A stretch of DNA of 64,000 nucleotides from a phage: the sequence record PV874203.1, one strand, 5' to 3'. Of this stretch, positions 13,330-62,391 are shown in pieces (positions within the stretch are counted from its first letter, which is position 1; each line of letters starts with the position of its first letter). The position numbers and the translations under genes are program-made. Below the pieces are notes generated by a model that saw only the letters and a list, made by a program, of their open reading frames with translations, had not been told where the DNA came from and did no database searches.

Positions 13330-13348
13330 GACCTAAGTCCTGCCTTCT

Positions 13349-13357
13349 ATAATGTAT
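13349..13357 (+). promoter_or_regulatory. TAATGTATA promoter-like motif (candidate phage-specific promoter)
   Basis: TAATGTATATAGGGGG about 40 nt upstream of the 1488-aa gene; the same motif recurs upstream of other genes on both strands. Confidence 0.45.
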
Positions 13358-13396
13358 ATAGGGGGTAGGACATTTTTATTTATAAAAGGAGACGTT

Positions 13397-16300
13397 ATGG
13401 CTAACATTAAACCGTGGGAAGAAGCTTCCAAAGCTCCTGCGTATCTGAATGCCTCTCCGGAGCAACAAGCTCAAATGAGAGAACAATATAAGGCAGCAGG
13501 TGGCTCTATTCCTGAGGAACAACCAGTAGCACAACCACAACAAGAAGAACGTGGTGCTATAGGTGAGTTTGCTCAAGGTGTGTCAAATGCTCTTCAATCC
13601 GGTGGTGCAAACATTGCAGCTAGTGCTGCTAAAGGTATTGGTGGTTTAGTTGAGATTGGTGAGAATCTAGCTGGAGCACAAACTAGTTATGGTAAGCGTA
13701 TCCAAGAGAACTCTCAGAACCTTCTGAAAGAACGTATGGATAAGATTGAGGATGGGATTGGTAAAACTGTCGGTCAATATGCTGGTGTTGCTGGTGATAT
13801 TGGTTTGACAGTTGCTAACCCATTAGCTGCCGCCGCTATCATTGCAGGTCGTGAGACAGGTCGTGCATATGCAGACCAAACCCCTGAAGAGGGAGAAGAT
13901 AAGTCTATTCTAGATGCAGCCTTAGTTGGTGGTGCTAACTATGCGGCTCAGAGAATCCTTCCGGGTGCTGTTGGTACAGCTGAGTCCACACTTGGACGTA
14001 TTGGTCAGAACGTTGCTACTAACGCAGTGGCTGGTGCTAAAGGTGGTGCTCTTGTAGGTGCTGCTGAAGCTCAGAACAAGCATGGAGATGATACAACCTT
14101 TGCTAATGTATTAGAGGGTGCTATCGAAGAAGGTGCTATGGGTGCTGCATTCGGTGGTGCAGTTGGTGGTGTTCATGGTTTGATTAGCCGTCCGGATTCT
14201 GCTGTCTTCAAGAACACTCCAGAGTATGCGAAGACTGATATTGCTGCTGATGATGAACTGATTCGTAGTGCTAAGAATATTGATGAATTGAAAGAAGCTT
14301 ACTCTAAAGCTGAAACTGCTAACGCTGCTTCCGCTCTTAATCTTCTAGATGAGAATGGATTCCGTATCACAGATGCTGTTGCTGTAGATTCTCCTGCTGC
14401 CCAGCGTATTCTTAATACAGACCAAGCTCGTGCTGAGAAAGCTGCTTCTGTTCAGAAAGAACATTCTAATATTCCTGGCCTCAATCCTTTGGCTTCTCCT
14501 GCTAAAGTTCGTGGTAAAGCATTCGCTGATAACGAGCACAACCAGAAGCAAGCTGTTGCTATGAAAGATGCAATGGCTGATTACACAAAGGATAACACTA
14601 AAGCTCTTACAGATGTTCTGGATAATCTTGATCGTGAGTTAGTTTCTCTCCGAGCTTCTGGTGATTTTACTGGTAGTCCGATTGATATTAAGAATCGCAC
14701 ACAAGCTGATCGTGACTTCATTGATGCTTACAAGACTTTCTATAATGAAGCAAACCGATTCAAAGCTCGTGATGGTGAAGACTTTAATAACTTTGTAGAG
14801 AAAGCTACTGAACTACAGAAGATGGCTGACAATGTTTCTCCAGAGATGAAACAAGCTATTGGTGGGTTGAAGAAACTGAAAGGTATGCCTGAAGGTTTTA
14901 ATCCTATCCAAGACGCCTACACTCTGAACAACACAGCTAAGTTCATGAGCAACCAAGACCGTGGTTGGACTTCCCTTACTGATGATGGCTTCCGTGAGAC
15001 TTCTTCTCCTAGTCTGGTTATGAACACCCTTGGTGCTGCTAAGTATGCTCTGAATCGCTTCTCTTCTCAGCGTGCTCGCTCTCAACGTGTTAAGCAACAA
15101 GAATCTAACAGTGAAGCTATCCGCTCTCTGGCTCGTGGTGATTTGGAAGTTGCTCGTGCTAAATCCACTGCTGATGAAGCTCGTGCTAAAATGGAAGAAG
15201 AACCAGTTGTTGATGACATTAAATTTAAGACGCAAAATGACGTAGAAACCGAACCGGTTCGGGAGCCTTCTTCTAGTACTGTGACGGAAGAAAATCTTCC
15301 TTCTTCTGCTCCTCAAGAAACTCCTCTTACAGCTCGTGATTTAGTTGCGCAAAGACGTGCTATCCGTCAGGCTGAACAGCGTCGCGCTGAAGAAGAGGCA
15401 GCAGCTGCTCAAGAAGCTCCGGTCGAACAAGCTCCACAGGCTGAACCTCTCCCTGCTCGTAATCCTTTAGAGGAACGTCGTGCGATGGAACAGCAACGTG
15501 CTCAAGAAGAGGCCACACAGGCTCCAGAACCCACCGTAGAGGAACCAACAGTTAAAGCTGAGCCATTACCTGCTCGTGCTCCTAAAGCTCCTAAGGAAGC
15601 TGTACAGGACGTTAAACCGGCAAGTGGTGTAGAACGTTTAGCTGCTATGTCTAGTGCTGCTCGTCAGGCTACTAAAGATCGTGCAGAACGTTTTGCTCGT
15701 TCTCTGTATTCCAAGGCTGCTAAGGCTAAAGCTACTGCTGAAAACTTCTTGGCTTACAAGGGTGATCCTAAGGAACTGATGCGTCGCATTCGTCAGGAAG
15801 ATAATGCTATCAACACTGAACGTCATGAAGAAATGGCTCGTAACCAGTTAGCTTCTCAGCAAGGTATTGCTACTGCTAAGAACAACACTGTACGAACTAA
15901 TTTTGCTGAATGGGTTAAGGAACGTGGTCTGCCAGAAGATATTGCTACTAAGGCATTACGTGCTGAAGAGAAAGGTTTAGGTGGGAACGTGACTAACTTG
16001 GATAGTTTGAAACGTCGTGCTGAAAGGTTGTATCAGAAGCAGCGTGAGGCTGAGTTTGATAGACTGTACCAAGAAGCTCTGGAAGAGAACAAAGCTTTCG
16101 ATAAGAAGGATGCTCCTAAACTGGTTGACCAGAAGAAAGAGCTTCAGTCTGAGATTGATACTTTGATTGATTCAGAACCTTTACGTCCTGCTCAGAAAGA
16201 TGCTATGCGCAGGCTGATGAATGATTATGTAGATGGGAAGTTTAAATCTTCAGAGAAGGCTGGTAGGGAAGAGGCTTTGGAAGTTGGTCAGATGAAGGAT

Positions 16301-17818
16301 ATTTGGGATGGGTTCATTAACACCTATAACAGAGAAGTGAATGCCTTCAACAAAGCTAACAAGAACTCTCAATACGAAGCTGCTGCTAAACACTTGCAGG
16401 CTCGTGAAGAACGTCTTGCTACTCTGAGAAATAAAGCTCAGGCTCGTTCAGATGCTAAAGCTGCTGTTGAAAATGAACGTAAAACTCTAGAGGCTATTGC
16501 AGCTCAGAAGAGTGAGATTGAGAAGATGATGGAAGGTTTACCTAAACCTGTTCGTGAGGCTCAGGAATCTCGTACATTGAAACAGTTGGCTGCTCACCAT
16601 GATAAGAACTCTCCAGTTCCTCCAGAGAAGTTCCGTAGTTACATTGAACGTATCCATAACGCCGAGTCAGATTACCTTGATCGTCAGCGTCGTTTAACTG
16701 ATGCAGAGGAAGATGCTCGTCAGGCTAAGTGGAATAAGATGTATGAGCAAGCGGAAGAGATGGACCGTAAATTTGATATAGACAAAAGAGTTAAACGCAG
16801 TGAAGAGCTTAAAGCGGCTCAGAAGCGTGAGAATGATCTCATGGCAGTACAACGTCAACGTGACGACATTCATCGTCGCCTGATGCATACTTTGGAAGAT
16901 AAAGGCATATCTAAAGAGGATGCTGAAGCATTTGCTGGTTCCTACATGGATAACCGTTATGCACTTCTTGATAAGCCTATGACTCCTACTGAACATCAGA
17001 ATGCTCGTTCTCGTATCGAAGCTGATGTTGAGAAGTTTGCTAAGAAGTACGAATCAATGACTCCTATCGAGAAAGAGATTGTTAAGGTTACTGGAGATAC
17101 TGAAGGTAAGCTTGATAACTTGGATGCGGATACTAGGAAGGCTATTGAGGAGGCTCAGAAGGTTGACTCTGATATTAAGAAATTGCAAGAGGAAGAGTTG
17201 GAGATGGAGAAGATTCGTTCTGCTCTGCCTGATGATGAAAAATCTCAAGCAAATTCTGATATCTTGGAAAGTATCAAACAGCAGGAAGAAGTCTTTGCTG
17301 ATAAAGTAGAGAAAGCTTTCTTGAGTGGGAAGAGCTTGGATGAGTTAGCTAGTGTGGCTGAAGTTTTAGACAGGGTTCATGGTGCAGATAAGGCTGGTAA
17401 CAACCGTCGCTTTGTACGTGCATTGCAGACTGCTGCTGAAAACAAGAAGAAGTATGGTGATAATCCAGTAGCTTGGTTTAGTGCTGATGATTACTCTGCC
17501 ATTGCTAAACTTGGCGCTTCTTCCGCAGGTGGTAACAAATCTAGAGCACTGGAGAAGATCTTTGGTTCTACAGCTGAACAGGCTAAGAGTAAGTTGCTTG
17601 GTAGGGATGATGTAGCGAAGATGAGACGTGTGATTGAAGAGAACCCTGATATTAAGATTCCTTCTTACAAGACAACGAATCGTACTGAGTACTTGCAGTT
17701 CTTGGAGAAGTTTAATGACGAAGGGAAGCCGAAGATTAAACGTGGCTCATTGTCAGAGAAGCTTGAACGCAGTAAGCGTCAATCGAGACTCCGTGTAAGA
17801 GTTCGACCTAAGGAGTGA
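13397..17818 (+). CDS. large internal virion / ejection-type protein, hypothetical
   Basis: Start set at ATG after AAGGAG (track start 13352 lacks RBS); 1474 aa, Ala/Glu/Lys/Arg-rich helical composition; size and position fit an internal core protein of a podovirus. Confidence 0.55.
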   Translation: MANIKPWEEASKAPAYLNASPEQQAQMREQYKAAGGSIPEEQPVAQPQQEERGAIGEFAQGVSNALQSGGANIAASAAKGIGGLVEIGENLAGAQTSYGKRIQENSQNLLKERMDKIEDGIGKTVGQYAGVAGDIGLTVANPLAAAAIIAGRETGRAYADQTPEEGEDKSILDAALVGGANYAAQRILPGAVGTAESTLGRIGQNVATNAVAGAKGGALVGAAEAQNKHGDDTTFANVLEGAIEEGAMGAAFGGAVGGVHGLISRPDSAVFKNTPEYAKTDIAADDELIRSAKNIDELKEAYSKAETANAASALNLLDENGFRITDAVAVDSPAAQRILNTDQARAEKAASVQKEHSNIPGLNPLASPAKVRGKAFADNEHNQKQAVAMKDAMADYTKDNTKALTDVLDNLDRELVSLRASGDFTGSPIDIKNRTQADRDFIDAYKTFYNEANRFKARDGEDFNNFVEKATELQKMADNVSPEMKQAIGGLKKLKGMPEGFNPIQDAYTLNNTAKFMSNQDRGWTSLTDDGFRETSSPSLVMNTLGAAKYALNRFSSQRARSQRVKQQESNSEAIRSLARGDLEVARAKSTADEARAKMEEEPVVDDIKFKTQNDVETEPVREPSSSTVTEENLPSSAPQETPLTARDLVAQRRAIRQAEQRRAEEEAAAAQEAPVEQAPQAEPLPARNPLEERRAMEQQRAQEEATQAPEPTVEEPTVKAEPLPARAPKAPKEAVQDVKPASGVERLAAMSSAARQATKDRAERFARSLYSKAAKAKATAENFLAYKGDPKELMRRIRQEDNAINTERHEEMARNQLASQQGIATAKNNTVRTNFAEWVKERGLPEDIATKALRAEEKGLGGNVTNLDSLKRRAERLYQKQREAEFDRLYQEALEENKAFDKKDAPKLVDQKKELQSEIDTLIDSEPLRPAQKDAMRRLMNDYVDGKFKSSEKAGREEALEVGQMKDIWDGFINTYNREVNAFNKANKNSQYEAAAKHLQAREERLATLRNKAQARSDAKAAVENERKTLEAIAAQKSEIEKMMEGLPKPVREAQESRTLKQLAAHHDKNSPVPPEKFRSYIERIHNAESDYLDRQRRLTDAEEDARQAKWNKMYEQAEEMDRKFDIDKRVKRSEELKAAQKRENDLMAVQRQRDDIHRRLMHTLEDKGISKEDAEAFAGSYMDNRYALLDKPMTPTEHQNARSRIEADVEKFAKKYESMTPIEKEIVKVTGDTEGKLDNLDADTRKAIEEAQKVDSDIKKLQEEELEMEKIRSALPDDEKSQANSDILESIKQQEEVFADKVEKAFLSGKSLDELASVAEVLDRVHGADKAGNNRRFVRALQTAAENKKKYGDNPVAWFSADDYSAIAKLGASSAGGNKSRALEKIFGSTAEQAKSKLLGRDDVAKMRRVIEENPDIKIPSYKTTNRTEYLQFLEKFNDEGKPKIKRGSLSEKLERSKRQSRLRVRVRPKE

Positions 17819-29749: not shown

Positions 29750-29784
29750 TTATATAAAAGAAAAGGCCACCCATTTGGGTAGCC
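29750..29784 (-). terminator. rho-independent terminator (minus strand)
   Basis: Minus strand: GGCUACCC-AAAU-GGGUGGCC (one G-U pair) followed by a T-run. Confidence 0.55.
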
Positions 29785-29789
29785 TTATA

Positions 29790-30113
29790 TTACGATGAGC
29801 TTAAAGCTCCTTTTCGCTTAGCAGCACCAGCTGCTTTTCCAGCTCGATTACCACTTTTGCCGCCGTTTGAACGGTTTGAGCTGACTGATTCAATACGTAA
29901 GTTGCTTGACGCATTAGAGCCTCCAGACTTGACAGCTCGTTTGTGTCCAACATCTTTACCTCTGACAGCAGCTTTTCCATCGCGCTTTTCAACGATGCGA
30001 CGTGCACGGTGGCGCTGAGCATCTCCGCTCTTGCTCCCAACGCCTGTCTCACCACGGGCAATTGCGGTACGTCTTTCTTGTGCATAATCTCTCTTTCCTA
30101 CATGATCTGCCAT
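29790..30113 (-). CDS. small basic Gly/Ser/Arg/Lys-rich protein
   Basis: 107 aa; strong RBS TTAAGGAGTTTTAA-ATG; preferred over the overlapping alternative frame, which lacks an RBS. Confidence 0.45.
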   Translation of the reverse strand: MADHVGKRDYAQERRTAIARGETGVGSKSGDAQRHRARRIVEKRDGKAAVRGKDVGHKRAVKSGGSNASSNLRIESVSSNRSNGGKSGNRAGKAAGAAKRKGALSSS

Positions 30114-31467: not shown

Positions 31468-31652
31468 TCAGTAAGAGACCACAGAGAGTCACCTATGCGG
31501 GCATTGTCATTCCTGATGAGATCTTTAATTTTATCCACATCAGTTAAGTGTGTTACGTTCAAGATATCCTTAACCTCTGGGGCATATTTAAATATGGCAA
31601 CAATACTTTTATGATCTTCAGCATATCTTTCTAGAACATAAACTACGCTCAT
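31452..31652 (-). CDS. hypothetical protein
   Basis: 66-aa ORF. Confidence 0.35.
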   Translation of the reverse strand: MSVVYVLERYAEDHKSIVAIFKYAPEVKDILNVTHLTDVDKIKDLIRNDNARIGDSLWSLTEWTLW

Positions 31653-49423: not shown

Positions 49424-49770
49424 ACTTACTCCTGTTGTTTACACTCGTCAATAACCCACTGATAAGTGGATTGCCCAGAAAAGAAACACTGAATAAATCC
49501 AGATGTTCTCTGCGTTACCAGTGCTAGTGCACAAATCACTACCGCTGCTGCTAGCAGTTTTAAATCTAATTTAGACATATTTCCTCTCATTGAATTTAAA
49601 AAAGGACTCTCCGAAAAGAGCCAAGCTTTAAATCCAAAAAAAGATATTACCCAATATCTGTGGATAACCTGCTCTTAAAATATCTATCCGACGGATGTTT
49701 GAGGAATACTCCTCGCCCTAGCATCGGCCCCATACGGGAAATATATTAAGATTAGGTTAGTTGAGTCAGA

Positions 49771-49800
49771 ATAACTCACATAGCCCTCCGGAGGGCTATA
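49771..49800 (-). repeat. conserved hairpin element, copy 1 (terminator or RNA-processing site)
   Basis: CTCACATAGCCCTC-CGG-AGGGCTATAGG; stem and 5' flank shared with the copy at 55737..55775, loop differs. Confidence 0.45.
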
Positions 49801-49804
49801 GGCG

Positions 49805-50269
49805 TTACTCTATCCTAACTGAAGGGCAGTATTTCTCTTTCTTGCTGCGATACATCACAACAATCCAGTTTGAATCACGACGCTCTTTCTTACGTCGTTT
49901 CTTTTCAGCACGAGTTTCATATGTGCTAGTTCTGTGGTCACGGTATATTCCACGAAGTTCATAAAATGCCCAACCACCACCAAACACTACACCAGCCAAA
50001 GCAGCCAAAGACAAGGCACCAAGAGCAGGGGCAGTGAACCATGTCCACCAATTGAATGACAAAAAATTCTCATGCCCAAGTAAAGAGCCACCAATCATGG
50101 ACAGTGCAGCGTATACAACCCCTAACAGCAGCGTCAGTGCAATGAAGTGCATCACTGTACGCCAGAAGTATTCACAGAAGTTGGTCATGTTGTCCCAATG
50201 ATAATTGGGTAGGCTTGACATGGCTTTGTTGAACTTGTGCAACCAGCCGTTCTTGTTAACCTTGATCAT
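49805..50269 (-). CDS. integral membrane protein
   Basis: 154 aa with several hydrophobic helices. Confidence 0.5.
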   Translation of the reverse strand: MIKVNKNGWLHKFNKAMSSLPNYHWDNMTNFCEYFWRTVMHFIALTLLLGVVYAALSMIGGSLLGHENFLSFNWWTWFTAPALGALSLAALAGVVFGGGWAFYELRGIYRDHRTSTYETRAEKKRRKKERRDSNWIVVMYRSKKEKYCPSVRIE

Positions 50270-50502
50270 TACTCACCTTTCTTGGCACGATCTTTGGCAG
50301 TTTTGCCAGTGCGGATACGATGGGAAACGTTAACCAGAGTGCCACCATCAACTACGGTAACACTCTTGTTTTTAGCCAGATCGAACACAGTTTTCTCCGT
50401 GCCACCCAAGCGAATTTGCTTAGGCTCACTGAAGGTTTGGGTTGATTTGGATTGGAACTGGAACGGTTGACGAATTGCATCGATTGCGCTTACTTTAGAC
50501 AT
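50269..50502 (-). CDS. hypothetical protein
   Basis: 77-aa ORF; RBS AAGGAA. Confidence 0.4.
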   Translation of the reverse strand: MSKVSAIDAIRQPFQFQSKSTQTFSEPKQIRLGGTEKTVFDLAKNKSVTVVDGGTLVNVSHRIRTGKTAKDRAKKGE

Positions 50503-50574
50503 AGGGGAAATTCCTTAAAAAGTTATGGCTGCGTAGAGGGAATTCCCTACGCAAATTGGGCCGCCCACAGAGAG

Positions 50575-50592
50575 GCGTCATAGTACTAAAAG
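50575..50592. repeat. conserved 18-nt element GCGTCATAGTACTAAAAG, copy 1
   Basis: Identical 18-mer at 58023..58040 with similar flanks (ACAGAGAG...AGG); a hairpin lies nearby in both copies. Confidence 0.4.
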
Positions 50593-50733
50593 GAGGAGAG
50601 AAGAGGGCTTATTTAGCTACCTTTTTCTGTCCGTTTACGAACCAGATAATTGAACCGTCAGGCTGTCGTTGCCCGAAGCCTTTCTGGTTAATCATATCGT
50701 CATAAGAATATGCTTTGATTCTCATTTGTTTTC

Positions 50734-50976
50734 CTATGGAGTTAAGATAATTTCAGCCTTACTAAACTTCTCACCAACTTCAAGAGTATCAGCAACAGGA
50801 CGGGGCACACCTGTACCCAAACAAACAGCCCTTCGATACCCTCCAGTCACAGGCATCATCAAATAGATGACCTGATTATCATCTTCTTTTAAAGTAAAGA
50901 TATCAGCGATCGATAGATCTTTAACAAAGAGTTTCTTTTCTTCTTCATGATGAACTTTGATATGTATTGTGCTCAT
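50734..50976 (-). CDS. small early protein, paralogous family member
   Basis: Shares the L..L..GD(V/I)F ... NL.TG pattern with eight other small ORFs. Confidence 0.45.
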   Translation of the reverse strand: MSTIHIKVHHEEEKKLFVKDLSIADIFTLKEDDNQVIYLMMPVTGGYRRAVCLGTGVPRPVADTLEVGEKFSKAEIILTP

Positions 50977-50978
50977 AC

Positions 50979-51224
50979 CTACTCCTGAACAACTGACATA
51001 CGAATCACTTCAACAGGTGCATCACTTTTCATAACACCCAGTACGCCAGTAAGAAGATTAACGGTCGTAATCCAACCTTCTTCGACAGAGATTTTGTTGG
51101 ATACATTATTAACACGGATGTAATACTGAGGGGATGCTGTTCCTCTCTGAACTACGAAAGGGTTTCCGGGAATAATTGTAGCCAGTGAAACAGTGTTATC
51201 TTTAATCTTTGGGATAATCTTCAT
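50979..51224 (-). CDS. small early protein, paralogous family member (divergent)
   Basis: 81 aa, similar length and pattern (…NLLTGVLG…). Confidence 0.4.
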   Translation of the reverse strand: MKIIPKIKDNTVSLATIIPGNPFVVQRGTASPQYYIRVNNVSNKISVEEGWITTVNLLTGVLGVMKSDAPVEVIRMSVVQE

Positions 51225-51232
51225 ATTGATTC

Positions 51233-51556
51233 CTATTTAAGTTTTAGGCTAATATTAAGGTGCATACATGCCCTGTTCTGTACAGCAGCATAACTTCTAC
51301 CGAGCATGTCAGCCATTCTCTGAATAGACATGAACCCAGCATTACGGATAAGGAACTGGTCTTCTTCTTTAGACCACTTGACTCGGATTACAGCTCTAGA
51401 AATACCGAACTTAGTGCAAGCTGTATTAACTGCATTCTCCGTTACATTCATAATCTGAGCAACTTCTTGAACCGAGTACTCTTTGATTAGTCTCCGAAGA
51501 TTTTCAATCTGCATCGGAGTCCATATAGTTCTTCGAGCTTTCATTTTACCACCCAT
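51233..51556 (-). CDS. helix-turn-helix DNA-binding protein
   Basis: IENLRRLIKEYSVQEVAQIMNVTENAVNTACTKFGI looks like an HTH. Confidence 0.45.
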   Translation of the reverse strand: MGGKMKARRTIWTPMQIENLRRLIKEYSVQEVAQIMNVTENAVNTACTKFGISRAVIRVKWSKEEDQFLIRNAGFMSIQRMADMLGRSYAAVQNRACMHLNISLKLK

Positions 51557-51767
51557 GTCGACTTTTAACTAACACACCATCAATTATCAGATAATGTAAA
51601 TGTCTTATCATATCTGAAGACAGATCTCCATGAGCGCTATTCCACTGAAGGAAGTTCATATCCTTCCAATCTGTGTAGTGCTTTTTGGCTTCTTCCTCTA
51701 TCTGACTAAGAGTTACCCTTCTGAAAGGATATGGACTATACTTAATAAGTGTTTCACATTTTGTCAT
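51546..51767 (-). CDS. hypothetical protein
   Basis: 73-aa ORF. Confidence 0.4.
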   Translation of the reverse strand: MTKCETLIKYSPYPFRRVTLSQIEEEAKKHYTDWKDMNFLQWNSAHGDLSSDMIRHLHYLIIDGVLVKSRHGW

Positions 51768-51811
51768 ATATCCTCCAATTAAATGTTTATGTAAGACTTG
51801 CTTAGATAAAG

Positions 51812-51846
51812 ATTCAATAAAATAGGGGGAGGGGACGAATCCTCCC
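51812..51846 (-). terminator. hairpin terminator (minus strand)
   Basis: GGGAGG-loop-CCTCCC hairpin; minus strand has T-rich tract after it. Confidence 0.4.
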
Positions 51847-52057
51847 TTATCCTATTAATTAATATTGCATGTAAGATCTAACAATCGGTTGCCTTTGTAG
51901 GAATAAGCGTTATGCCAATCCAGCACTAAACTCCCGCCCCCTTAGTGGGCTGGGTTTATAAAGGGTAACGCCCTTATGGGCTAGTTACATGAATGTTAGT
52001 TTGATAGGGGATCTGAAGTCCTATCTCAAAGGACTCTCGTAAGAATCCTTCACGATA

Positions 52058-52315
52058 TTACTTAAAGATGAAATGTATAACTGCATCATATGCTTTAGAC
52101 AGAAGCCAACCTATCGGATAACAGACTCCTGCCAGTATTGAGATGGGCCATAACATAATTAAGATCACAACCATCATCTCATCAGGTTCAGAGCTGGTAG
52201 ACCCTGTTGTAATGACCCCTTTTAGTAGACCTTTCTTGTATAGCAGTTTCAGCACTAAAACAGAAAGGAATACTCCAATAAAGTAAACTGAGATAAAAAT
52301 ATCAAGTAAACCCAT
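52058..52315 (-). CDS. small membrane protein
   Basis: 85 aa, two hydrophobic helices. Confidence 0.45.
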   Translation of the reverse strand: MGLLDIFISVYFIGVFLSVLVLKLLYKKGLLKGVITTGSTSSEPDEMMVVILIMLWPISILAGVCYPIGWLLSKAYDAVIHFIFK

Positions 52316-52326
52316 TTAATCACCTA

Positions 52327-52458
52327 TTACTTATTCAACTTTCGTCTGCTATCTCGCCAAGCCAACCAAGTGTAGGTTTTCAGCTCTTCAAAGTCTTCTG
52401 GAGAGAATAGATATTCTTTGAAGGTATTTCCAAACCACTTTAAAAATTCTTCAGTCAT
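52327..52458 (-). CDS. hypothetical small protein
   Basis: 43 aa, not in track; AAGAGG RBS. Confidence 0.3.
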   Translation of the reverse strand: MTEEFLKWFGNTFKEYLFSPEDFEELKTYTWLAWRDSRRKLNK

Positions 52459-52466
52459 AAAACCTC

Positions 52467-52640
52467 TTAACAAGACTGGTCACATGGCTGATCACCACAT
52501 GTTTTACAAATCACTGGTGAATAACTACAGGAAGGATATACTGACACACCGTCAAACGTCTCACACCCACAGTCAGGGCATGTACCATTGGATTCCATGT
52601 CATAATCATCATCCACTTCACCACCACCATAACAGCTCAT
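52467..52640 (-). CDS. small Cys-rich (zinc-binding?) protein
   Basis: 57 aa, not in track: MSCYGGGEVDDDYDMESNGTCPDCGCETFDGVSVYPSCSYSPVICKTCGDQPCDQSC; strong RBS AAGGAG. Confidence 0.45.
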   Translation of the reverse strand: MSCYGGGEVDDDYDMESNGTCPDCGCETFDGVSVYPSCSYSPVICKTCGDQPCDQSC

Positions 52641-52649
52641 ATGAACTCC

Positions 52650-52871
52650 TTAGTAAACTAAACCTATAGCCTTTGCATCAGGCTGAGGGACTACTTTTGC
52701 ATTAGGGCGATAACCATCCACTGAACCATTCCAAAGGTTGACACAGGTGATATACCCATCGTTCAAGTAGTCTGTTTTAATCCAGAAGTGTTTATCGTGA
52801 CCAAAGATACTTCCTTTTGGCAGTGTGGACAATTCAACAGTTTTAAGGGATTGTTTAGAATCTAATTTCAT
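52650..52871 (-). CDS. small early protein, paralogous family member
   Basis: LKTVELSTLPKGSIFGHDKHFWIKTDYLNDGYITCVNLWNGSVDG. Confidence 0.45.
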   Translation of the reverse strand: MKLDSKQSLKTVELSTLPKGSIFGHDKHFWIKTDYLNDGYITCVNLWNGSVDGYRPNAKVVPQPDAKAIGLVY

Positions 52872-52880
52872 ATAAGTTCC

Positions 52881-53078
52881 TTAATACACCAAGCCATGTA
52901 AGAGAAACACTCTCTTAGTTAACTCTGCTTTAGCTCTGTAATAAGCCTTAGAACCTAACAGGCGGCGTTTAACAAAGAACTTAATGTCATTGCTAACATC
53001 TTGTATTAAACGCTCCTGTACAGCTTCTGAGGAGCTATTAATTGAATCAATTAACACCTTTGTAGATGTATAATTCAT
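52881..53078 (-). CDS. hypothetical protein
   Basis: 65-aa ORF. Confidence 0.35.
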   Translation of the reverse strand: MNYTSTKVLIDSINSSSEAVQERLIQDVSNDIKFFVKRRLLGSKAYYRAKAELTKRVFLLHGLVY

Positions 53079-53079
53079 A

Positions 53080-53379
53080 TCACCACTCCTTACCGGTTGT
53101 TGTTACAGAGCCACCACACCACAACGCTGTATCAATCACAACATTATCTGGCGTAGACTTCTCTTCGTTGATAGAAGGGTTAGCATTGGAGCAGGTTGCT
53201 CCGTTCCAGCGCATATCGATTTCACCAGAAGGAACCTTCTCACCTTTATGCCAGCGAGAAACACAAACACCTTCCACTGCTACTGCACACCATCCATCAG
53301 GACGGCTCTGTACGCAGCCTGTAAGGGCCACACAGACAAGGAAGATACAGATTAAGGATATTACACCACCCCAACTCAT
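53080..53379 (-). CDS. lipoprotein
   Basis: Signal peptide with lipobox LTGC; Cys-rich mature region. Confidence 0.55.
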   Translation of the reverse strand: MSWGGVISLICIFLVCVALTGCVQSRPDGWCAVAVEGVCVSRWHKGEKVPSGEIDMRWNGATCSNANPSINEEKSTPDNVVIDTALWCGGSVTTTGKEW

Positions 53380-53398
53380 AACTATCTCCTACGTTGAT

Positions 53399-53474
53399 TG
53401 GTGCACCCTACAGGACTCGAACCTGTAACCAACGACTTAGAAGGTCGCTGCTCTGTCCATTGAGCTAAGGGTGC
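53399..53474 (-). tRNA. tRNA-Arg (anticodon UCU), CCA encoded
   Basis: Minus-strand cloverleaf: 7-bp acceptor stem GCACCCU/AGGGUGC, D-arm GCUC/GAGC, anticodon loop CUUCUAA, T-arm ACAGG-UUCGAGU-CCUGU, 3' ACCA. Confidence 0.85.
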
Positions 53475-53483
53475 TATATTTAT

Positions 53484-53792
53484 TTATAAGGAGAAAGACT
53501 TCTTACAATCCTTCTCTTCAAAAGTGTAGTAGCCTGTTGTATCAGGGAAGTAGGCATACTTTGTTTCTTTGCCATCAATAGCCATGACACGATTACCAGA
53601 AGTTGTTTCTACAAACAGAAGCCCATCTCTTACCATACCATGAGATTCTTTGATACCAGTTAAGCTATGCTCTTTAAGAGTGCATTGCTGAACACTCTGA
53701 TACTTAACTCCAATCTCTGCACTATTAACAGAGATGATACCAATGGTTGTCATTAGTAGTAAGGTTGAGATGATAAAATGCTTTTGTTTCAC
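53484..53792 (-). CDS. secreted/periplasmic protein
   Basis: N-terminal signal peptide MKQKHFIISTLLLMTTIGIISVNSA. Confidence 0.5.
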   Translation of the reverse strand: MKQKHFIISTLLLMTTIGIISVNSAEIGVKYQSVQQCTLKEHSLTGIKESHGMVRDGLLFVETTSGNRVMAIDGKETKYAYFPDTTGYYTFEEKDCKKSFSL

Positions 53793-53810
53793 ATTAACCT
53801 CTGGATTTAT

Positions 53811-54020
53811 TTAACTGAAGATACGCAAGGCCACATCGTGATAGATATGACCGGGGACTTTGTGCTGTTCTATTTTCAAACAGCGTTTACAGACACGAGA
53901 TACACGAGATTCTTTTCTCTCGACCGGAGTGTCTTTAGCGTGAGTAATATGTAAGTTTTCAGTGATCACCCACTCATGTTTACATCCAGAATCTTCGGGC
54001 TTTTTCTTACGAAAGAACAT
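53811..54020 (-). CDS. zinc-ribbon protein (paralogue pair A)
   Basis: CKHEW...CKRCL motif; similar to next gene. Confidence 0.4.
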   Translation of the reverse strand: MFFRKKKPEDSGCKHEWVITENLHITHAKDTPVERKESRVSRVCKRCLKIEQHKVPGHIYHDVALRIFS

Positions 54021-54029
54021 AACACCCCC

Positions 54030-54191
54030 TTAGATTACATCACGATGACTAACATCACCACACACCTTACACTGAATAACGTAACGTGTGCCCTTGTCAT
54101 TATTCCCATCTGAATCTGTATAGACCAGAGGGCGAGTATTAATAATCTTCCAATCATGACAATGAAAGACACGCTTTAGCCACTTGAACAT
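54030..54191 (-). CDS. zinc-ribbon protein (paralogue pair B)
   Basis: CHDWKI...CKVCG; start trimmed to an internal Met to remove overlap. Confidence 0.4.
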   Translation of the reverse strand: MFKWLKRVFHCHDWKIINTRPLVYTDSDGNNDKGTRYVIQCKVCGDVSHRDVI

Positions 54192-54198
54192 ATTAACC

Positions 54199-54450
54199 TC
54201 AAGCACAAGCAGGGAGAGTGATGATTTTATGCTTACCATCAAACTCTCCAAATAAACCTAAGAATGTAGGACTGTAAGTGCCAGTACAAACAAACTCATC
54301 AAACAGTGCGTTATAGCTAGGCTTAATCTTCCAAGCCCATACATAACCCATCTTGTCAATTGCAATGTAACGAGTGTTCAGAGGAACAGTCATCATCACA
54401 CCATCAACTTCAATCACTTTAGTTATTGGTGCAGCTTGGAAGTTTTTCAT
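54199..54450 (-). CDS. hypothetical protein
   Basis: 83-aa ORF. Confidence 0.4.
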   Translation of the reverse strand: MKNFQAAPITKVIEVDGVMMTVPLNTRYIAIDKMGYVWAWKIKPSYNALFDEFVCTGTYSPTFLGLFGEFDGKHKIITLPACA

Positions 54451-54677
54451 TACATTTCCTCTAACTTAAGAGTTGCTTTATATTCTTTAACCGGAGCGTC
54501 TTCAGGGAAAGAAAGTCTTTGAGAGGGTTGGGGTAATCGTACAGAAAACCCGCCACCAATCTTCATGTAGAAAGATTCTTGACTGGCAAGTTCTGTGTTG
54601 AATGTGAAAATAGAACCAATGCTCAAGTCTCGGAAAGTCTTTTGCTTTGGTTTAGTCGAGTCTAAAACGATATTCAT
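54450..54677 (-). CDS. small early protein, paralogous family member
   Basis: FRDLSIGSIFTFNTELASQESFYMKIGGG. Confidence 0.45.
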   Translation of the reverse strand: MNIVLDSTKPKQKTFRDLSIGSIFTFNTELASQESFYMKIGGGFSVRLPQPSQRLSFPEDAPVKEYKATLKLEEM

Positions 54678-54842
54678 ACTTTACCTTTGATAAAAATGTC
54701 ATTACCACAGACACAGCATGAACGAACAACAGTAGCGCCACGCTGAACGATACGAACCTCTTCTTTAACCAGATTAACACGAGCACCACAGCAAGGAGAG
54801 TTAACATAAGAGTAACCAGCTTGCGTATTCTTGATTGTTTGC

Positions 54843-55199
54843 TTAGACATTTGATTCGAGATCTCTTAGTTGTTCAGCCAATTGTTCGCACTCATTGATG
54901 CAGAACTCTTCTGTTCTTGGAACCCCATTAGGGTTGAACCGTGTCTTATCACACGCATGGGCACAATCAAACCCGATTGTATTTAAACCACCCATCTCTT
55001 CAAGAGTGTCTTGCCATGTTACACCACCGTGAACTCCAACATACCAAACAACCGCTTCCTCTCCGTTATATCCGGTGAAGTTTTTATGCTTTAAGCTGTC
55101 TGGTAGCTCTACATATCCACAAAGATGGGAGTCGTTCATGTGAATAATCACAGCACGAAGCCCTGATTTAGTTACCCAACCTTTAACCATGCGTCTCAT
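54843..55199 (-). CDS. hypothetical protein
   Basis: Start set at internal ATG with AGAGGTG RBS; the track N-terminus would read through a terminator hairpin. Confidence 0.45.
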   Translation of the reverse strand: MRRMVKGWVTKSGLRAVIIHMNDSHLCGYVELPDSLKHKNFTGYNGEEAVVWYVGVHGGVTWQDTLEEMGGLNTIGFDCAHACDKTRFNPNGVPRTEEFCINECEQLAEQLRDLESNV

Positions 55200-55239
55200 A
55201 TAAGCACCTCTTGTTAGTTTAAGTAAGAGTTGTCCCTTA

Positions 55240-55273
55240 ATTAAAACAACAAAGGCCACCCGATTGGGCAGCC
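55240..55273 (-). terminator. rho-independent terminator (minus strand)
   Basis: Minus strand GGCUGCCC-AAUC-GGGUGGCC followed by UUUGUUGUUUU; near-identical hairpin at 29765..29784. Confidence 0.55.
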
Positions 55274-55736
55274 TTTTATCTATTAACTGTTGTATGTCCA
55301 ATTACCTTGCTTGTTACGGATAGCTGACATTGCATGAAGCCAGAAGCCTTCCAGTTTCAGAGCACCGTTAGCTACTGCATCCATACGTTCAGGGCGGTTC
55401 ATAAGTTTGGTTGACACTTTCATACCTATATCTCTTTGTTAGTGGAGGCATTATTGCCAGTTGATATAAGGGATAGCCCTAGTCAGGAGACTAATTCTGA
55501 CCGCGTACTCATTGCCGACCTTCTCTGCCTAAGAGTTCAGGTTCTAGAGCTATCTCTTATTCCAACTGGTGAAGACTCCCTACCCCTAGGAAGTCTCCTG
55601 AATCCCAAACCGATACGTACCCCTACATATCAGAAAGTCTTTCGAAAATTAACAGGTTTTAGTCTAACACCGGATGTTCGAGCAAGCTCTCCCTAGCGGT
55701 GTGGCATATGCCTGAGTTAATAAGTTAATGAGGAAC

Positions 55737-55775
55737 ACCCTCACATAGCCCTCTGATAGACACAAGGGCTATAAG
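55737..55775 (-). repeat. conserved hairpin element, copy 2
   Basis: CTCACATAGCCCT-CTGATAGACACA-AGGGCTATAAG; same stem and flank as 49771..49800. Confidence 0.45.
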
Positions 55776-55781
55776 TCGGTG

Positions 55782-56000
55782 TTACTTTTGAGTCAAACAC
55801 AGATCAGGACGGGGCATAACAGTGGTTGATAGACCAAAGACTTCAACATAACCAGTGCCCAGATTGGCAGCCTTACGTAAACCGTCAGGGGTTTTATCTT
55901 CTAGCATCAGCCAGAAACGTTTATCGTAAGAGAAAACATCACCACCCTTAACGTCTTCTGCATTTGCATATTTAGGATAATCAACTACTTTAATTTCCAT
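55782..56000 (-). CDS. small early protein, paralogous family member
   Basis: AEDVKGGDVFSYDKRFWLMLEDKTPDGLRKAANLGTG. Confidence 0.45.
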   Translation of the reverse strand: MEIKVVDYPKYANAEDVKGGDVFSYDKRFWLMLEDKTPDGLRKAANLGTGYVEVFGLSTTVMPRPDLCLTQK

Positions 56001-57228: not shown

Positions 57229-57316
57229 ATTATTTACCCTTTATCAGAGATTAAAAGTAATATTATTTAAGTAAGTTATATTTAGTAAACTTATTTTCTA
57301 AGAAATTTTCAAAGGG

Positions 57317-57327
57317 TCTATATACAG
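57317..57327 (-). promoter_or_regulatory. TGTATATAG promoter-like motif variant (minus strand)
   Basis: Plus CTATATACAGAG is the reverse complement of CTCTGTATATAG, about 90 nt upstream of 56932..57228. Confidence 0.3.
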
Positions 57328-57427
57328 AGCATTACCCATAGTCCCAGAATACTACCATCTTTTTCAATAAATTTACTAAGTGGTTGGTTTATAAAGGAAT
57401 TTAGTTTGTCAAATCTGGCACTAGTGA

Positions 57428-57892: not shown

Positions 57893-58022
57893 AAACCTGA
57901 AAGCAACATATGACCGTTGCTATAAATACACTCGCAAATGCACTTACAGCAACGCAAAAAGCCGCTCAAAGGCGGCTATGCGGAAGCTTCAAATGGGGAG
58001 AGGGCACGACGCGACAGAAAGA

Positions 58023-60237: not shown

Positions 60238-61054
60238 CTTTCAATTGTAAGGGCACTATGCCCCGCTCTCTATGAGCTTGTTTAAGTCACTATTAACTTA
60301 ACTATAACCACTCGTTGTTAAGTAGTTATAGGTAAGCGGGGCGGTCTTATCAGGAGTTAACCTTGCCGCCCCCTTATCCGTGATGTTTCATCTGGTACGC
60401 TTTAATTTTCCGCTATAAATAAAGCCGGATTGCGTAGCGATGATCAATCATCACAATAAGGCTATGCGTCCAACTCAATTTAATTACATTGCTGTAACCG
60501 TTGGCAATATCGTCTACTTTGCTTTCGCTCCCGCCTATCCTTTGTGCCAACTCCTAACCGCTAACCATCGCCCACTACGGGAGGTTATTGCGGAAAGAGA
60601 TCATTGACCGCCTAATATTCCGGCGTTTTATATCTTTCGGCGGGTTTACTACATAACCCGACTATGTACTTCCGTCATAAGACGAATCTCAAGCCGTTCA
60701 CATCGTAAACGTTCGCATTAAACCTTATTGTTAAATAGCAATTTGCCACTTTTTAACCACTCCCCGCCGCCCTCAATTGGGCGTTAATTCGTCGGACTTG
60801 TCTGCCCTGATTAGTTTCTTTCACTGTAGCACCGTGTTAGCGATGGCCGCCGCTACCCTTAACCGTGGGCGATTAGCTTAAACCTTTGCGTGTACTCAAT
60901 GAATCCGCTTATCAGTGGCGACTTTTCCAGTTAAGGGATTGTAAAACTGTTTACCCTGATGTTTTAGGGAGTTTTACGCCGTTTTATCTGGTATGCTGTC
61001 CGATGGTTATTATCTTCCAGCATATTTAACCGATATATGGGAATGTTTAAATTG

Positions 61055-61065
61055 TTAAAGAGCGG
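61055..61065. repeat. TTAAAGAGCGG repeat, copy 1
   Basis: ATTGTTAAAGAGCGG; one of four copies in the ORF-poor region. Confidence 0.45.
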
Positions 61066-61288
61066 TAAATCTGTCAGCGTGCTTTCTCACGCTACGCAAC
61101 TGTTAGCCGTTGTTACGCTTTTCACTTAAGCGGTGATTTGCTTCAGTGATGCTCATTATGGACCATGATGTTTTTGCTGTCAACCGCTTTTTTAATCTTT
61201 TTCGTCGTTCCCGCTATTGGGAGGATATATCAACCCGCTTTATTGGGTTGAAGATTAAGCGATGAGGCTTAACCCATGATTCATATTG

Positions 61289-61298
61289 TTAAAGAGCG
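61289..61298. repeat. TTAAAGAGCG repeat, copy 2
   Basis: ATTGTTAAAGAGCG; plus-strand context gives TTGTTA-N17-TATAGT. Confidence 0.45.
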
Positions 61299-61562
61299 TT
61301 TAGCCTTTTATAGTGTCTGCTAATCACTGCATCATTAAAGGCTTACTTATTCATTAACGGGGCGCCTAATCCCGAACTACCCGCTGCACTATGTGCCACC
61401 TTTCCCGCGATACGTTGATTTAGGAACTAGTTAACGTTGTTTTGTTAACTTGTGGTTAGTATGAACTACCTTAACCACGTTTGCAACCCTTTTTTATCAT
61501 CTTCTTTTATTCTTTTCCCTTATCTCGCTTGAATCTATGCGAAAGGGCAAGATGATAAGTTT

Positions 61563-61573
61563 TTAAAGAGCGG
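61563..61573. repeat. TTAAAGAGCGG repeat, copy 3
   Basis: TTTTTAAAGAGCGGG; lies just downstream of the predicted minus-strand sigma70 promoter. Confidence 0.45.
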
Positions 61574-61602
61574 GATGCTTTAAGTCATCGCTGACTATGC
61601 TC

Positions 61603-61631
61603 ACTATATATCAGGCTATTTTCGGTGTCAA
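61603..61631 (-). promoter_or_regulatory. sigma70-type promoter (minus strand), candidate early promoter
   Basis: Minus strand reads TTGACA-17 nt-TATAGT (plus tgtcaa 61626..61631, actata 61603..61608). Confidence 0.55.
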
Positions 61632-61670
61632 TACTCTTTTTAAGAATATTTTCACTTTCTAGCCTGATTT

Positions 61671-61683
61671 TTAAAGAGCGGGG
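61671..61683. repeat. TTAAAGAGCGGGG repeat, copy 4
   Basis: TTTTTAAAGAGCGGGG. Confidence 0.45.
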
Positions 61684-61727
61684 CAATTTCTTGCCTTGTA
61701 TGTTTTTCATCGTACCCGATGAATTGA

Positions 61728-61755
61728 AGTATACATTAATCAGTGAGGGATGCAA
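61728..61755 (-). promoter_or_regulatory. sigma70-like promoter overlapping a TAATGTATA motif (minus strand)
   Basis: Minus strand TTGCAT-16 nt-TATACT; the -10 overlaps TAATGTATA (plus 61730..61738). Confidence 0.4.
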
Positions 61756-62016
61756 TAGGGTAAAGCAAACTATTTTAAACTTTTTCACTATAGGGAAGAT
61801 AAAGGAACGGGTGCGCGTGATACATCATAGAAAACGGCTTGTAAAGCGATATTTAGCGGCCTAAAACGCACTATAGCGAGCTAAAAGGGAGTAAGGTATA
61901 CAATCACCTTAGAAACGATAAGAGCCTCACTAGGAGGCTTATAGGAAGGATTTAGAGCATTAGATAGATTATGACCATAGGCATGACTACGGCACAATAT
62001 AGGAGAAAGATTAAGC

Positions 62017-62391
62017 CTATGGATTTACACACTGACCATTACCTGATGCCATTTCATTCATGGACTCATCAAAGAGCGTCAACGATGAGCGCATTAAGTG
62101 ATCAACCGTAACTTGTTTACCAGTGGTTTCATTCACTAATTGAATAGTTTTAGCGTATGATTGTACATGCTCGAAATCATTTACATGCAAAATAATAACC
62201 TTAGGTGACTTTTTACCAGTCTCATAATTCTCCACAAGATAGGTGCACTGTAAACCGTCAACCGTAGCAGGGGAAAACGTTGCAGCTTTAACGCTACCCA
62301 TAGCAGATAGTAAGACACCCAACAGAAGAATGACCAGAAAGAAGCCTACAAATACTTTCACTACGAATTTAATAATACCCATGATAATCAA
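62017..62391 (-). CDS. membrane-anchored protein
   Basis: N-terminal hydrophobic helix IIKFVVKVFVGFFLVILLLGVLLSAMG. Confidence 0.45.
   Translation of the reverse strand: MIIMGIIKFVVKVFVGFFLVILLLGVLLSAMGSVKAATFSPATVDGLQCTYLVENYETGKKSPKVIILHVNDFEHVQSYAKTIQLVNETTGKQVTVDHLMRSSLTLFDESMNEMASGNGQCVNP

Follow-up and report, generated by a model that had tools for sequence, protein, structure and literature searches.

Two gaps on the minus strand of a 64,000-nucleotide stretch of phage DNA (sequence record PV874203.1; the whole stretch is called the window here) each carry a copy of a conserved RNA module that is folded on the sense strand. The two copies are paralogous, lie at gene joints of the early transcription unit and are restricted to one phage clade. 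The window belongs to a Kuravirus, that is, a phiEco32-like coliphage, and matches about 100 phages of the genera Kuravirus and Suseptimavirus at 80-97% identity, including phiEco32, NJ01, SU10, Bas91 and SU7. A sequence-only reading of this DNA had drawn attention to two hairpins with a common stem and different loops, each directly after a minus-strand gene. The observed repeat is far longer than these hairpins, each of which (P1) is the top of a bipartite stem of 44-56 nucleotides (nt) and thereby part of the first domain of a multi-helix module of 145-160 nt. We rate the module as a putative cis-acting intercistronic phage RNA element that is matched in no RNA database or literature searched, and refer to its occurrences, both on the minus strand, as copy 1 and copy 2.

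The two hairpins are parts of a longer repeat

Both hairpins are present as first described, ATAGCCCT-CCGG-AGGGCTAT at 49780-49799 and ATAGCCCT-CTGATAGACACA-AGGGCTAT at 55745-55772, with G+C-rich stems of 8-9 bp and folding energies of -12.3 and -13.8 kcal/mol. The common flank CTCAC stands directly 5' of both on the plus strand and corresponds to GTGAG (GUGAG in RNA) 3' of the hairpin on the transcribed minus strand. The hairpins follow minus-strand stop codons at a distance of 4-9 nt (open reading frames (ORFs) 49805..50269 and 55782..56000), and the gaps behind them, 49591-49804 and 55424-55781, are devoid of minus-strand ORFs of at least 50 amino acids (aa), the second gap being followed by an ORF of 46 aa. 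There is no U-tract 3' of either hairpin (3' flanks GUGAGUUAUUCUG and GUGAGGGUGUUCC), and a terminator scan that does find sites at 49622, 55276, 57892 and 57977 calls neither of the two; the missing U-tract agrees with the earlier view that these are not plain intrinsic terminators. A genome-wide search for further copies, which had been proposed as a check, found the gapped hairpin pattern exactly twice in the 64 kb and in none of 100 shuffles, and the 3' arm with its flank (AGGGCTATGTGAG) has no further copy in the window with fewer than two mismatches. A second common motif, GCTAGGG-stem-AACATCC, is found 42-52 nt beyond the hairpins on the minus strand (49722-49693 and 55697-55672); this pattern also occurs exactly twice in the window, and none of 100 shuffles had two matches.

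Architecture of the module

Both copies begin with helix A/P1, continue with P2 and with P3-P4, whose loops GCUAGGG and AACAUCC are invariant, and are closed by helix B. Helix A extends P1 downward and holds or abuts the UAA or UGA stop codon of whichever gene lies upstream, and these varied upstream genes all end in the element's own AGUAAC or AGUGAC. The base of the P1 stem (AUAGCC/GGCUAU) is invariant in 30 sequences, and the P1 loop is UUCG, UACG, CCGG, CCCG or 12 nt long, with UUCG or UACG in most copy 1 sequences, CCGG in copy 1 of the window and 12 nt in copy 2 of the window; the spacing of the P1 half-sites thus ranges from 8 to 16 nt. Helix A and P1 together comprise 15 pairs over 44 nt in copy 1 and 21 pairs over 56 nt in copy 2, with bulges or an internal loop between the helices, and have the shape of an RNase III-type substrate, an irregular duplex of about two helical turns. 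P2 is a small hairpin, CCC-GUAU-GGG or GGC-AUAU-GCC, and P3-P4 is a stem, an internal loop and a second stem, the inner and outer stems varying in sequence with their pairing kept.

We note an alternative hairpin at 49775-49761 and 55740-55726 (minus strand) that competes with helix A for the same nucleotides. It has the general form GAGN...NCUC and is seen as GAGU...ACUC, GAGC...GCUC and GAGG...CCUC, and as GAGUUA...UAACUC in the Salmonella phage 7-11. Helix A and this hairpin are mutually exclusive, both vary compensatorily, and the fourth pair of the hairpin covaries. With the stop codon located in helix A, the fold might be switched by a ribosome that terminates there.

The features of copy 1 are listed below, where R1 denotes a covariance model built from copy 1 sequences alone.

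49768..49811, minus strand: bipartite stem-loop of copy 1 (minimum free energy -22.2 kcal/mol, z -4.3; RNAalifold and pair counts)
49657..49811, minus strand: copy 1 module (R1, 185.6 bits)
49658..49679, minus strand: putative double DnaA box tTTAAGAGCAggTTATCCACAg, shared with helix B (its 3' strand) and with the beginning of the first terminator
49599..49659, minus strand: two intrinsic terminator-like hairpins after copy 1 (terminator scan and folding)

Helix A of copy 1 is formed by AGAGUAAC and GUUAUUCU and includes the UAA stop codon (49807-49805); P1 is formed by 49799-49792 and 49787-49780 around the CCGG loop, and a linker leads from helix A/P1 to helix B. P2 (49738-49729) and P3-P4 (49727-49688) are held in a junction closed by the long-range helix B, UAACCU:AGGUUA plus CUUAA:UUAAG, with its 5' strand at 49759-49754 and 49750-49746 and its 3' strand at 49680-49665. 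The minimum free energy fold of the single sequence reproduces the helices of the module (z -5.1). Two terminator-like hairpins follow, AGAUAUU-GGGU-AAUAUCU with seven U residues (49659-49636) and GGCUCU-UUUCGG-AGAGUCC with six (49622-49599), and the ribosome-binding site (RBS) and ATG of the next gene stand directly behind them (49590/49578). The second terminator and its A/U extension covary (pair 217-235 is G.U or A-U, pair 206-246 U-A or C-G), and its hairpin is kept as far as phage 7-11. No conserved antiterminator pairing with the 5' arm of the terminator was found; the pairing AAGAGC:GCUCUU is present in Kuravirus and absent from pSal-SNUABM-01 and 7-11.

The features of copy 2 and of the region behind it are as follows.

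55731..55786, minus strand: bipartite stem-loop of copy 2 (minimum free energy -23.9 kcal/mol, z -4.3)
55641..55782, minus strand: copy 2 module, a paralogue of copy 1 over the whole model (R1 positions 1-159)
55424..55640, minus strand: further structured leader of about 220 nt, specific to copy 2 (RNAalifold, 14 sequences)
55283..55423, minus strand: 46-aa ORF, a homologue of phi32_112 (ATG, frame and stop kept in 14 phages)
55241..55276, minus strand: intrinsic terminator ending the copy 2 unit (terminator scan, 11 pairs, six of them G-C)

Helix A of copy 2, AACACC:GGUGUU, lies just 3' of the UAA stop codon (55784-55782), and P1 (55772-55765 / 55752-55745) carries the 12-nt loop. P2 is found at 55712-55703 and P3-P4, with GCUAGGG and AACAUCC, at 55701-55668; the equivalent of helix B, UUAAC:GUUAA, is weaker than that of copy 1. 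In an alignment of 14 sequences and 372 columns, the leader region of copy 2 has 117 pairs, which are formed in 97.3% of the cells versus 39-44% when helix partners are slid, the control used for all pair counts here, and 14 of these pairs are compensatory versus one to three in the slid controls. Two hairpins of the leader have an identical 8-nt loop, UAGGGGUA (55625-55618 and 55588-55581, minus strand), and TAGGGGTA occurs in the window only at these two hairpins. UAGGG is present four times in the leader, counting the GCUAGGG loop and GACUAGGGCUAUCCC at about 55485-55470, and its recurrence suggests a repeated binding motif. A long-range helix covers the RBS of the following small ORF, at the place where phi32_112 is annotated in phiEco32, and the unit ends in the terminator AAAGGCUGCCC-AAUC-GGGUGGCCUUU with a U-rich tail. 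The terminators at 29753-29790 and 55242-55279, about 25 kb apart, share the core AAAGGCCACCC....GGG.AGCCTT (repeat family D12) and look like related cassettes by their sequence.

Covariation and conservation

The R1 model, although built from copy 1 sequences alone, matches copy 2 of the window from end to end with 52.9 bits and E-values of 1.3e-10 to 1.8e-13, and it scores copy 2 across the phages at 47-62 bits (E about 1e-9 to 1e-13). For the 40 pairs of the model, pairing is intact in 98.5% of the cells across 17 distinct copy 1 sequences (32-48% in the slid controls), and nine pairs are compensatory; in the joint alignment of copies 1 and 2 the corresponding values are 95.5% versus 35-44%, with compensatory changes in 22 of the 40 pairs. 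Phylogeny is not taken into account by the shuffle control of this comparison. For example, P3 is CCGA/UCGG or UCGG/CCGA, P4 is GAGGA/UCCUC or GAGCA/UGCUC, and a P2 pair is C-G or G-C. The upper pairs of P1 covary among C-G, U.G and U-A, as seen in copy 1 at pair 19-34 (U.G, C-G or U-A), and pair 6-47 of copy 1 is A-U, or G.U where the stop codon is UGA. Helix A of copy 2 likewise appears as AACACC:GGUGUU and AACAUC:GAUGUU with U.G intermediates (pair 8-49). The G.U and U.G pairs of the module are valid on the minus (sense) strand only. The covarying upper stem and these strand-specific wobbles bear out the earlier suggestion that the hairpins are under selection for RNA structure. That reading therefore holds in respect of RNA-structure selection and of their not being plain intrinsic terminators, but not in taking each hairpin for a self-contained element: each is the apical half of a longer stem, and a self-contained hairpin leaves the stem with the stop codon and the multi-helix module of about 150 nt unexplained. 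The first stem as such may still serve RNase III processing or factor-dependent termination.

The module is also conspicuous at the level of genome alignment. In comparison with SU7, a phage of a different genus, the genes that flank the modules are 0-13% alignable, whereas the copy 1 gap is covered to 100% at 91.6% identity and the copy 2 module to 100% at 92.2% identity; the whole compared region has 52% coverage and 76.6% identity. The modules are thus conservation islands between unalignable genes. From the stop codon to the terminator, the copy 1 gap can be aligned with Salmonella phage 7-11 and its relatives at 69% identity. The 7-11 type (Moazamivirus, a different family) shares only about 40 genes with phiEco32 (PMC8948821).

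With R1, the window and each Kuravirus/Suseptimavirus stretch that spans both gaps give exactly two copies, and the Moazamivirus phages 7-11 and pSal-SNUABM-01 one copy each, the locus of the latter covering the entire early region. In the Cronobacter phage GAP52 there is only a weak match (17.7 bits, E 0.011) and none that is convincing. Scans of IMG/VR, metagenomes and 185,579 genomes with strict patterns found the core only on kuravirus-like or moazamivirus-like contigs, the other hits being chance matches without the helices; a loose core pattern gave chance matches only in the wide scan. A search for related loci using the upstream membrane protein returned three loci only. Rfam 15 has no match in either gap at the gathering score or at E<=10, and the papers covered here on phiEco32, SU10, SU7 and 7-11 do not mention the element.

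Two other identities for the modules were rejected. Small coding sequences (CDSs) are annotated over the module in some records, and protein coding is at odds with P1 lengths that differ by 2, 4 and 8 nt and with in-frame stop codons. ARAGORN and Rfam give no tRNA or tmRNA at the modules and identify only a tRNA-Arg(UCU) at 53399-53474 (minus strand), which lies between the two modules and is the sole tRNA of the window. We also note that in pSal-SNUABM-01 a putative RNA-binding protein of the ProQ/FinO family is annotated in the early region (13041-13769), about 5.6 kb upstream of the module copy.

A double DnaA box in copy 1 and the nrdD leader of the host

The arrangement TTAAGAGCA-GG-TTATCCACA at 49678-49659 is invariant in 16 of 16 Kuravirus/Suseptimavirus sequences. 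Judged by sequence only, the copy 1 gap has the layout of a double box, TTATCCACA with a degenerate second 9-mer 2-3 bp upstream on the same strand. In 7-11 the double box is reduced to a single TTATCCACA box, and the Salmonella phages keep mainly a 13-nt box core, AGGUUAUCCACAG. Two more perfect TTATCCACA 9-mers are found in the window at 10626-10634 and 31531-31539 (plus strand).

A BLAST search with the copy 1 gap against 5426 complete E. coli genomes gave a single chromosomal match in 5326 of these genomes, immediately before the ATG of nrdD. The aligned tract is identical at 36 of 42 positions (86%; E. coli locus 1501-1542), the similarity extends over 42-50 nt, and the box itself agrees at 21 of 22 positions. 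In E. coli, the nrdD upstream sequence 'tTTAAGAACAggTTATCCACAg' is listed as a double DnaA box with DnaA binding in chromatin immunoprecipitation sequencing (ChIP-seq) (PMC11317965, Table 1). In the reverse direction, the E. coli nrdD leader matched this phage clade only among 50,697 phage records. Copy 2 has no match in the E. coli genomes, and the DnaA box is confined to copy 1. A comparison of the Salmonella-phage tracts with nrdD of Salmonella and of E. coli, as a sign of host tracking, gave mixed results. NrdR boxes were considered as the cause of the nrdD similarity and rejected: palindromes resembling the NrdR consensus lie about 130-170 bp further upstream, off the matching tract.

Between about -13 and -46 the nrdD leader is the complement of the phage sense strand, and the predicted duplex of the copy 1 RNA with this leader has an energy of -55.8 kcal/mol versus -20.6 +/- 3.7 for shuffles. 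Such modelling indicates that the copy 1 RNA could form a duplex of more than 30 bp with the leader, ending about 13 nt before the AUG. The nrdD match may stem from binding of DnaA to the phage DNA, from an antisense role of the RNA, or from nothing more than the capture of host DNA. The 7-11 relative GAP52 encodes an NrdD-like protein and NrdG (12156-12656 and 15028-17160), and no nrdD- or nrdG-type genes were found in the stretches examined of phages with the nrdD-like tract; that GAP52 has its own NrdD/NrdG and lacks the module should be taken as a hint only, from one case.

The copy 1 tract tTTAAGAGCAggTTATCCACAg resembles in layout the double DnaA boxes of E. coli at nrdD, datA, DARS and the oriC R4 region (PMC11317965). 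Unlike these, it is located in a phage, within a transcribed and structured RNA, and is inverted with respect to transcription when compared with nrdD. The box of copy 1 appears to be a known kind of site in a new place.

The early transcription unit

Both hairpins lie inside a leftward minus-strand cluster of small early genes, the phiEco32 equivalent of which is phi32_113/112 to phi32_91/90, and copy 1 is located upstream of an amidoligase / COOH-NH2 ligase / glutamine amidotransferase cluster in Kuravirus and Moazamivirus alike. Two near-consensus matches to sigma70 promoters, on the minus strand at 61631-61603 and 61183-61155, precede both copies and correspond to early promoters predicted in the SU10 spacer. 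For SU10, one early promoter is predicted upstream of CDS125 and three in the CDS120/121 spacer, and the next predicted promoter of the leftward cluster is a middle promoter at CDS68/69, about 26 kb on (PMC4281155, Table S2). These promoter positions, all of them predicted, place both hairpins within one long unit of early transcription. The interval from the copy 1 terminators to the next start codon is too short for a promoter, and the downstream early genes therefore need read-through. The transcription study of 7-11 states that the antitermination strategy 'remains to be defined' (PMC8948821).

Promoters within the gaps were also considered. The promoter motif of gp36, the phage sigma factor (TAATGTATA), is absent from the copy 1 and copy 2 gaps. 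A sigma70 promoter in the linker was rejected, the copy 1 sequence matching at only 9 of 12 positions (CTGACT-18-TATATT), not being kept in 7-11, being absent from copy 2 and being overlapped by covarying helices. N4-type hairpin promoters have a stem of 5-7 bp with a 3-nt loop and go with a giant virion RNA polymerase. Such promoters were rejected for the modules as well: the genome is that of a Kuravirus with a largest ORF of 1488 aa and no giant virion RNA polymerase, and the P1 loops have 4-12 nt.

Other non-coding parts of the early region were noted in passing. A non-coding spacer of about 1.9 kb at 60251-62100 (phiEco32 72787-74730) holds both sigma70 matches and an exact phage-sigma motif TAATGTATA at 61738-61730 (minus strand). 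The gap 57229-57427 (minus strand) has GGTAGTA...TAATGCTCTGTATATAG and resembles the SU10 middle promoter, ttggtagtag...aaatgtatatag, listed between CDS68 and CDS69 (PMC4281155). An ORF-free early gap at 51768-52057 (minus strand) contains several G+C-rich hairpins and a terminator-like site at 51846-51827, and is alignable with SU7 at 82% coverage and 76% identity.

Proposed function and alternatives

We tentatively favour, at somewhat less than an even chance, a function of the module in cis on the early RNA, in intercistronic processing, stability or attenuation. The module would be part of the long early transcript that sigma70 promoters drive in phiEco32-like phages. Its stable first stem, often UNCG-capped and about two helical turns long, would define or protect the 3' end of the upstream message after cleavage of the RNase III or RNase E type. 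The invariant junction is kept in both copies and is therefore probably recognised by something common to both, and the core (P2 and P3-P4 with GCUAGGG/AACAUCC) may form the binding surface for such a factor. In copy 1, the module, the double DnaA box and the two leaky terminators before the next gene would together meter the early transcription that reaches the downstream genes, with a structured RNA of about 200 nt released as a by-product.

Several points weigh against this cis-acting function. The independent lineages are few, namely the split between Kuravirus/Suseptimavirus and Moazamivirus and that between the two copies; the alignment (A11) is fitted to the model and so favours the model's structure; the SU10 promoter map is a prediction; and every functional step is inferred. 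A simple stabilising hairpin needs neither the invariant stem base (AUAGCC/GGCUAU) nor the 100-nt domain behind it. There is no terminator right behind copy 2, and the strong terminators at 57977 and 57892, upstream of copy 2, are without a module; the module is therefore not a general partner of terminators.

One alternative is that the hairpins stand on their own, as intrinsic or factor-dependent terminators or as isolated RNase III sites. A G+C-rich stem right behind the stop codon and a total helix length of 15-21 pairs, which suits RNase III, would fit, but the U-tract is missing, the hairpin is inseparable from a module that the covariance model matches end to end in both copies, and on the predicted map the downstream genes have no promoter of their own; we regard this as very improbable. 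An element acting at the DNA level, for DnaA titration, as a roadblock or replication site and/or as a recombination linker for gene cassettes, with the hairpins as incidental palindromes, would account for a double DnaA box that differs little from a host site proven by ChIP, and for conserved islands between non-homologous genes of which the differing upstream ones end in AGUAAC/AGUGAC. The DnaA box is, however, confined to copy 1, the variable spacing of the P1 half-sites is ill-suited to a dimeric protein that binds double-stranded DNA, and six helices show compensatory changes and wobbles that fit one strand only, as expected of a folded single strand of the transcribed sense, all of which makes this explanation improbable. 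An equally improbable proposal is an attenuator of the riboswitch type, in which the junction closed by helix B would sense a ligand or protein and decide whether the copy 1 terminators form. The multi-helix junction, the invariant internal-loop nucleotides and the existence of two paralogues speak for it, as do the terminators and next RBS that follow copy 1 at once and the position of copy 1 ahead of the amidoligase cluster in both genera. Against it stand the lack of an Rfam match even at the permissive E-value, the lack of a conserved antiterminator pairing, the lack of a terminator adjacent to copy 2, and a module that begins at a stop codon inside an operon and not behind a promoter.

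Processive antitermination of the nut/put type, in which the nascent module, unaided or together with Nus factors or a phage protein, would bind the transcribing RNA polymerase and allow read-through of the early-unit terminators, is quite unlikely. It would make sense of two related copies in the early unit, each upstream of terminators that need read-through, and of boxA-like strings after the hairpin (CCUCAUUAAC in copy 2 and ACUCAACUAAC in copy 1, judged against the boxA consensus), and the authors of the 7-11 study leave the strategy 'to be defined' (PMC8948821). The strong terminators at 57977 and 57892 are nevertheless upstream of both copies, the 7-11-type phages have one copy about 19 kb from the early promoters, and the module is twice the size of put, is unlike boxA-boxB and has its boxA-like string partly buried in covarying helices. 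It is likewise unlikely, to a lesser degree, that copy 1 gives rise to a trans-acting phage small RNA (sRNA), a unit of about 200 nt running from a processing site at helix A/P1 to about 49600 that alters host nrdDG expression. This would be an RNA of the 3'-untranslated-region (3'-UTR) type, whose antisense tract of 33-50 nt pairs with the leader of nrdD (anaerobic ribonucleotide reductase) just upstream of the Shine-Dalgarno sequence. The complementarity and predicted duplex energy described above, the specificity of the match in both directions, the U-tailed intrinsic terminators that end the copy 1 unit and the nrdD/nrdG genes of GAP52, which has no module, are in favour of it, and copy 1, but not copy 2, has features suggestive of Hfq-type 3'-UTR sRNAs (a U-tailed terminator and extended complementarity near the target RBS). 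On the other hand, the tract is a double DnaA box shown by ChIP-seq, so that homology at the DNA level alone explains the complementarity; helix B engages about 11 nt of the tract, and the first terminator stem some of it; the Salmonella phages keep mainly the box core; copy 2, without a host match, leaves the shared module unexplained; and the location of the site within the nrdD mRNA is deduced from promoter-like motifs for the start of transcription.

A combined view, which we consider somewhat unlikely, is that the module represents a new class of phage structured RNA to which copy 1 adds a host-directed effector, through pairing of more than 30 nt with the nrdD leader and/or as a DnaA decoy or roadblock copied from that host site. 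If true, it would link early gene flow in the phage to deoxynucleoside triphosphate supply and replication control in the host. On such a view the shared core with the GCUAGGG/AACAUCC junction might just as well prove to sense a ligand or a protein, or to be a new type of RNA that cleaves itself.

The phiEco32-like phages, Kuravirus and its relatives, are often considered for therapy, and work on their transcription programme has dealt only with promoters and sigma factors. How terminators are passed in the early unit of about 26 kb is an open point stated in the 7-11 study (PMC8948821). A two-copy module at operon joints, with copy 1 fused to a host DnaA/nrdD-like site and leaky terminators, offers a candidate for early-unit control that can be mutated. 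A new RNA family would join a very small set of structured non-coding RNAs from virulent coliphages.

Comparison with known systems

The early RNase III hairpins of T7 (R0.3, R1.1) are intercistronic and present several times per genome, and the cleaved upstream mRNA keeps a protective 3' hairpin. The stem of the module is similar to these sites in its position after a stop codon in a long early polycistronic transcript, its length of about two turns, its internal loop and its related copies. Unlike the self-contained T7 hairpins, it continues into a conserved junction of three helices (about 100 nt), has the stop codon in its lower helix and occurs in two copies only. In lambda nut, a boxA (CGCUCUUA / GCUCUUUAACAA) stands beside a boxB hairpin with a fixed 5-nt loop, and the put RNA of HK022 consists of two adjacent stem-loops of about 70 nt that act in cis on RNA polymerase and lie between the early promoter and terminators. 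The module shares with both the occurrence of two related copies in an early operon and a hairpin with a conserved flank upstream of terminators, but has 150 nt and six helices versus 30-70 nt, and terminators are also present upstream of both copies. Its placement in an early unit ahead of terminators fits put, and its architecture differs. It has no sequence relation to nut, and of lambda-type nut features only the loose boxA-like strings CCUCAUUAAC and ACUCAACUAAC were found, with P1 loops of 4-12 nt.

In T4-type phages, PeSL cassettes with an early promoter and a stem-loop flank variable genes. The modules are comparable conserved non-coding islands beside variable small early genes and plausible sites of cassette exchange, but have no conserved promoter and are far more elaborate in structure. 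The intercistronic CUUCGG hairpins of T4-type phages (Tuerk et al. 1988, as cited in PMC8948821) provide another parallel, and the 7-11 study suggests that a GTTCGG hairpin at another place in the 7-11 genome stabilises transcripts or serves their processing (PMC8948821). Most copy 1 sequences similarly cap P1 with C(UUCG)G or UACG in an intergenic position; in contrast, the loops of the window are CCGG and 12 nt, and the conserved feature is the stem base with its flanks and not the tetraloop. By analogy, the element appears to work most like the T7-type processing hairpins and is placed like nut/put, while having the defining features of neither.

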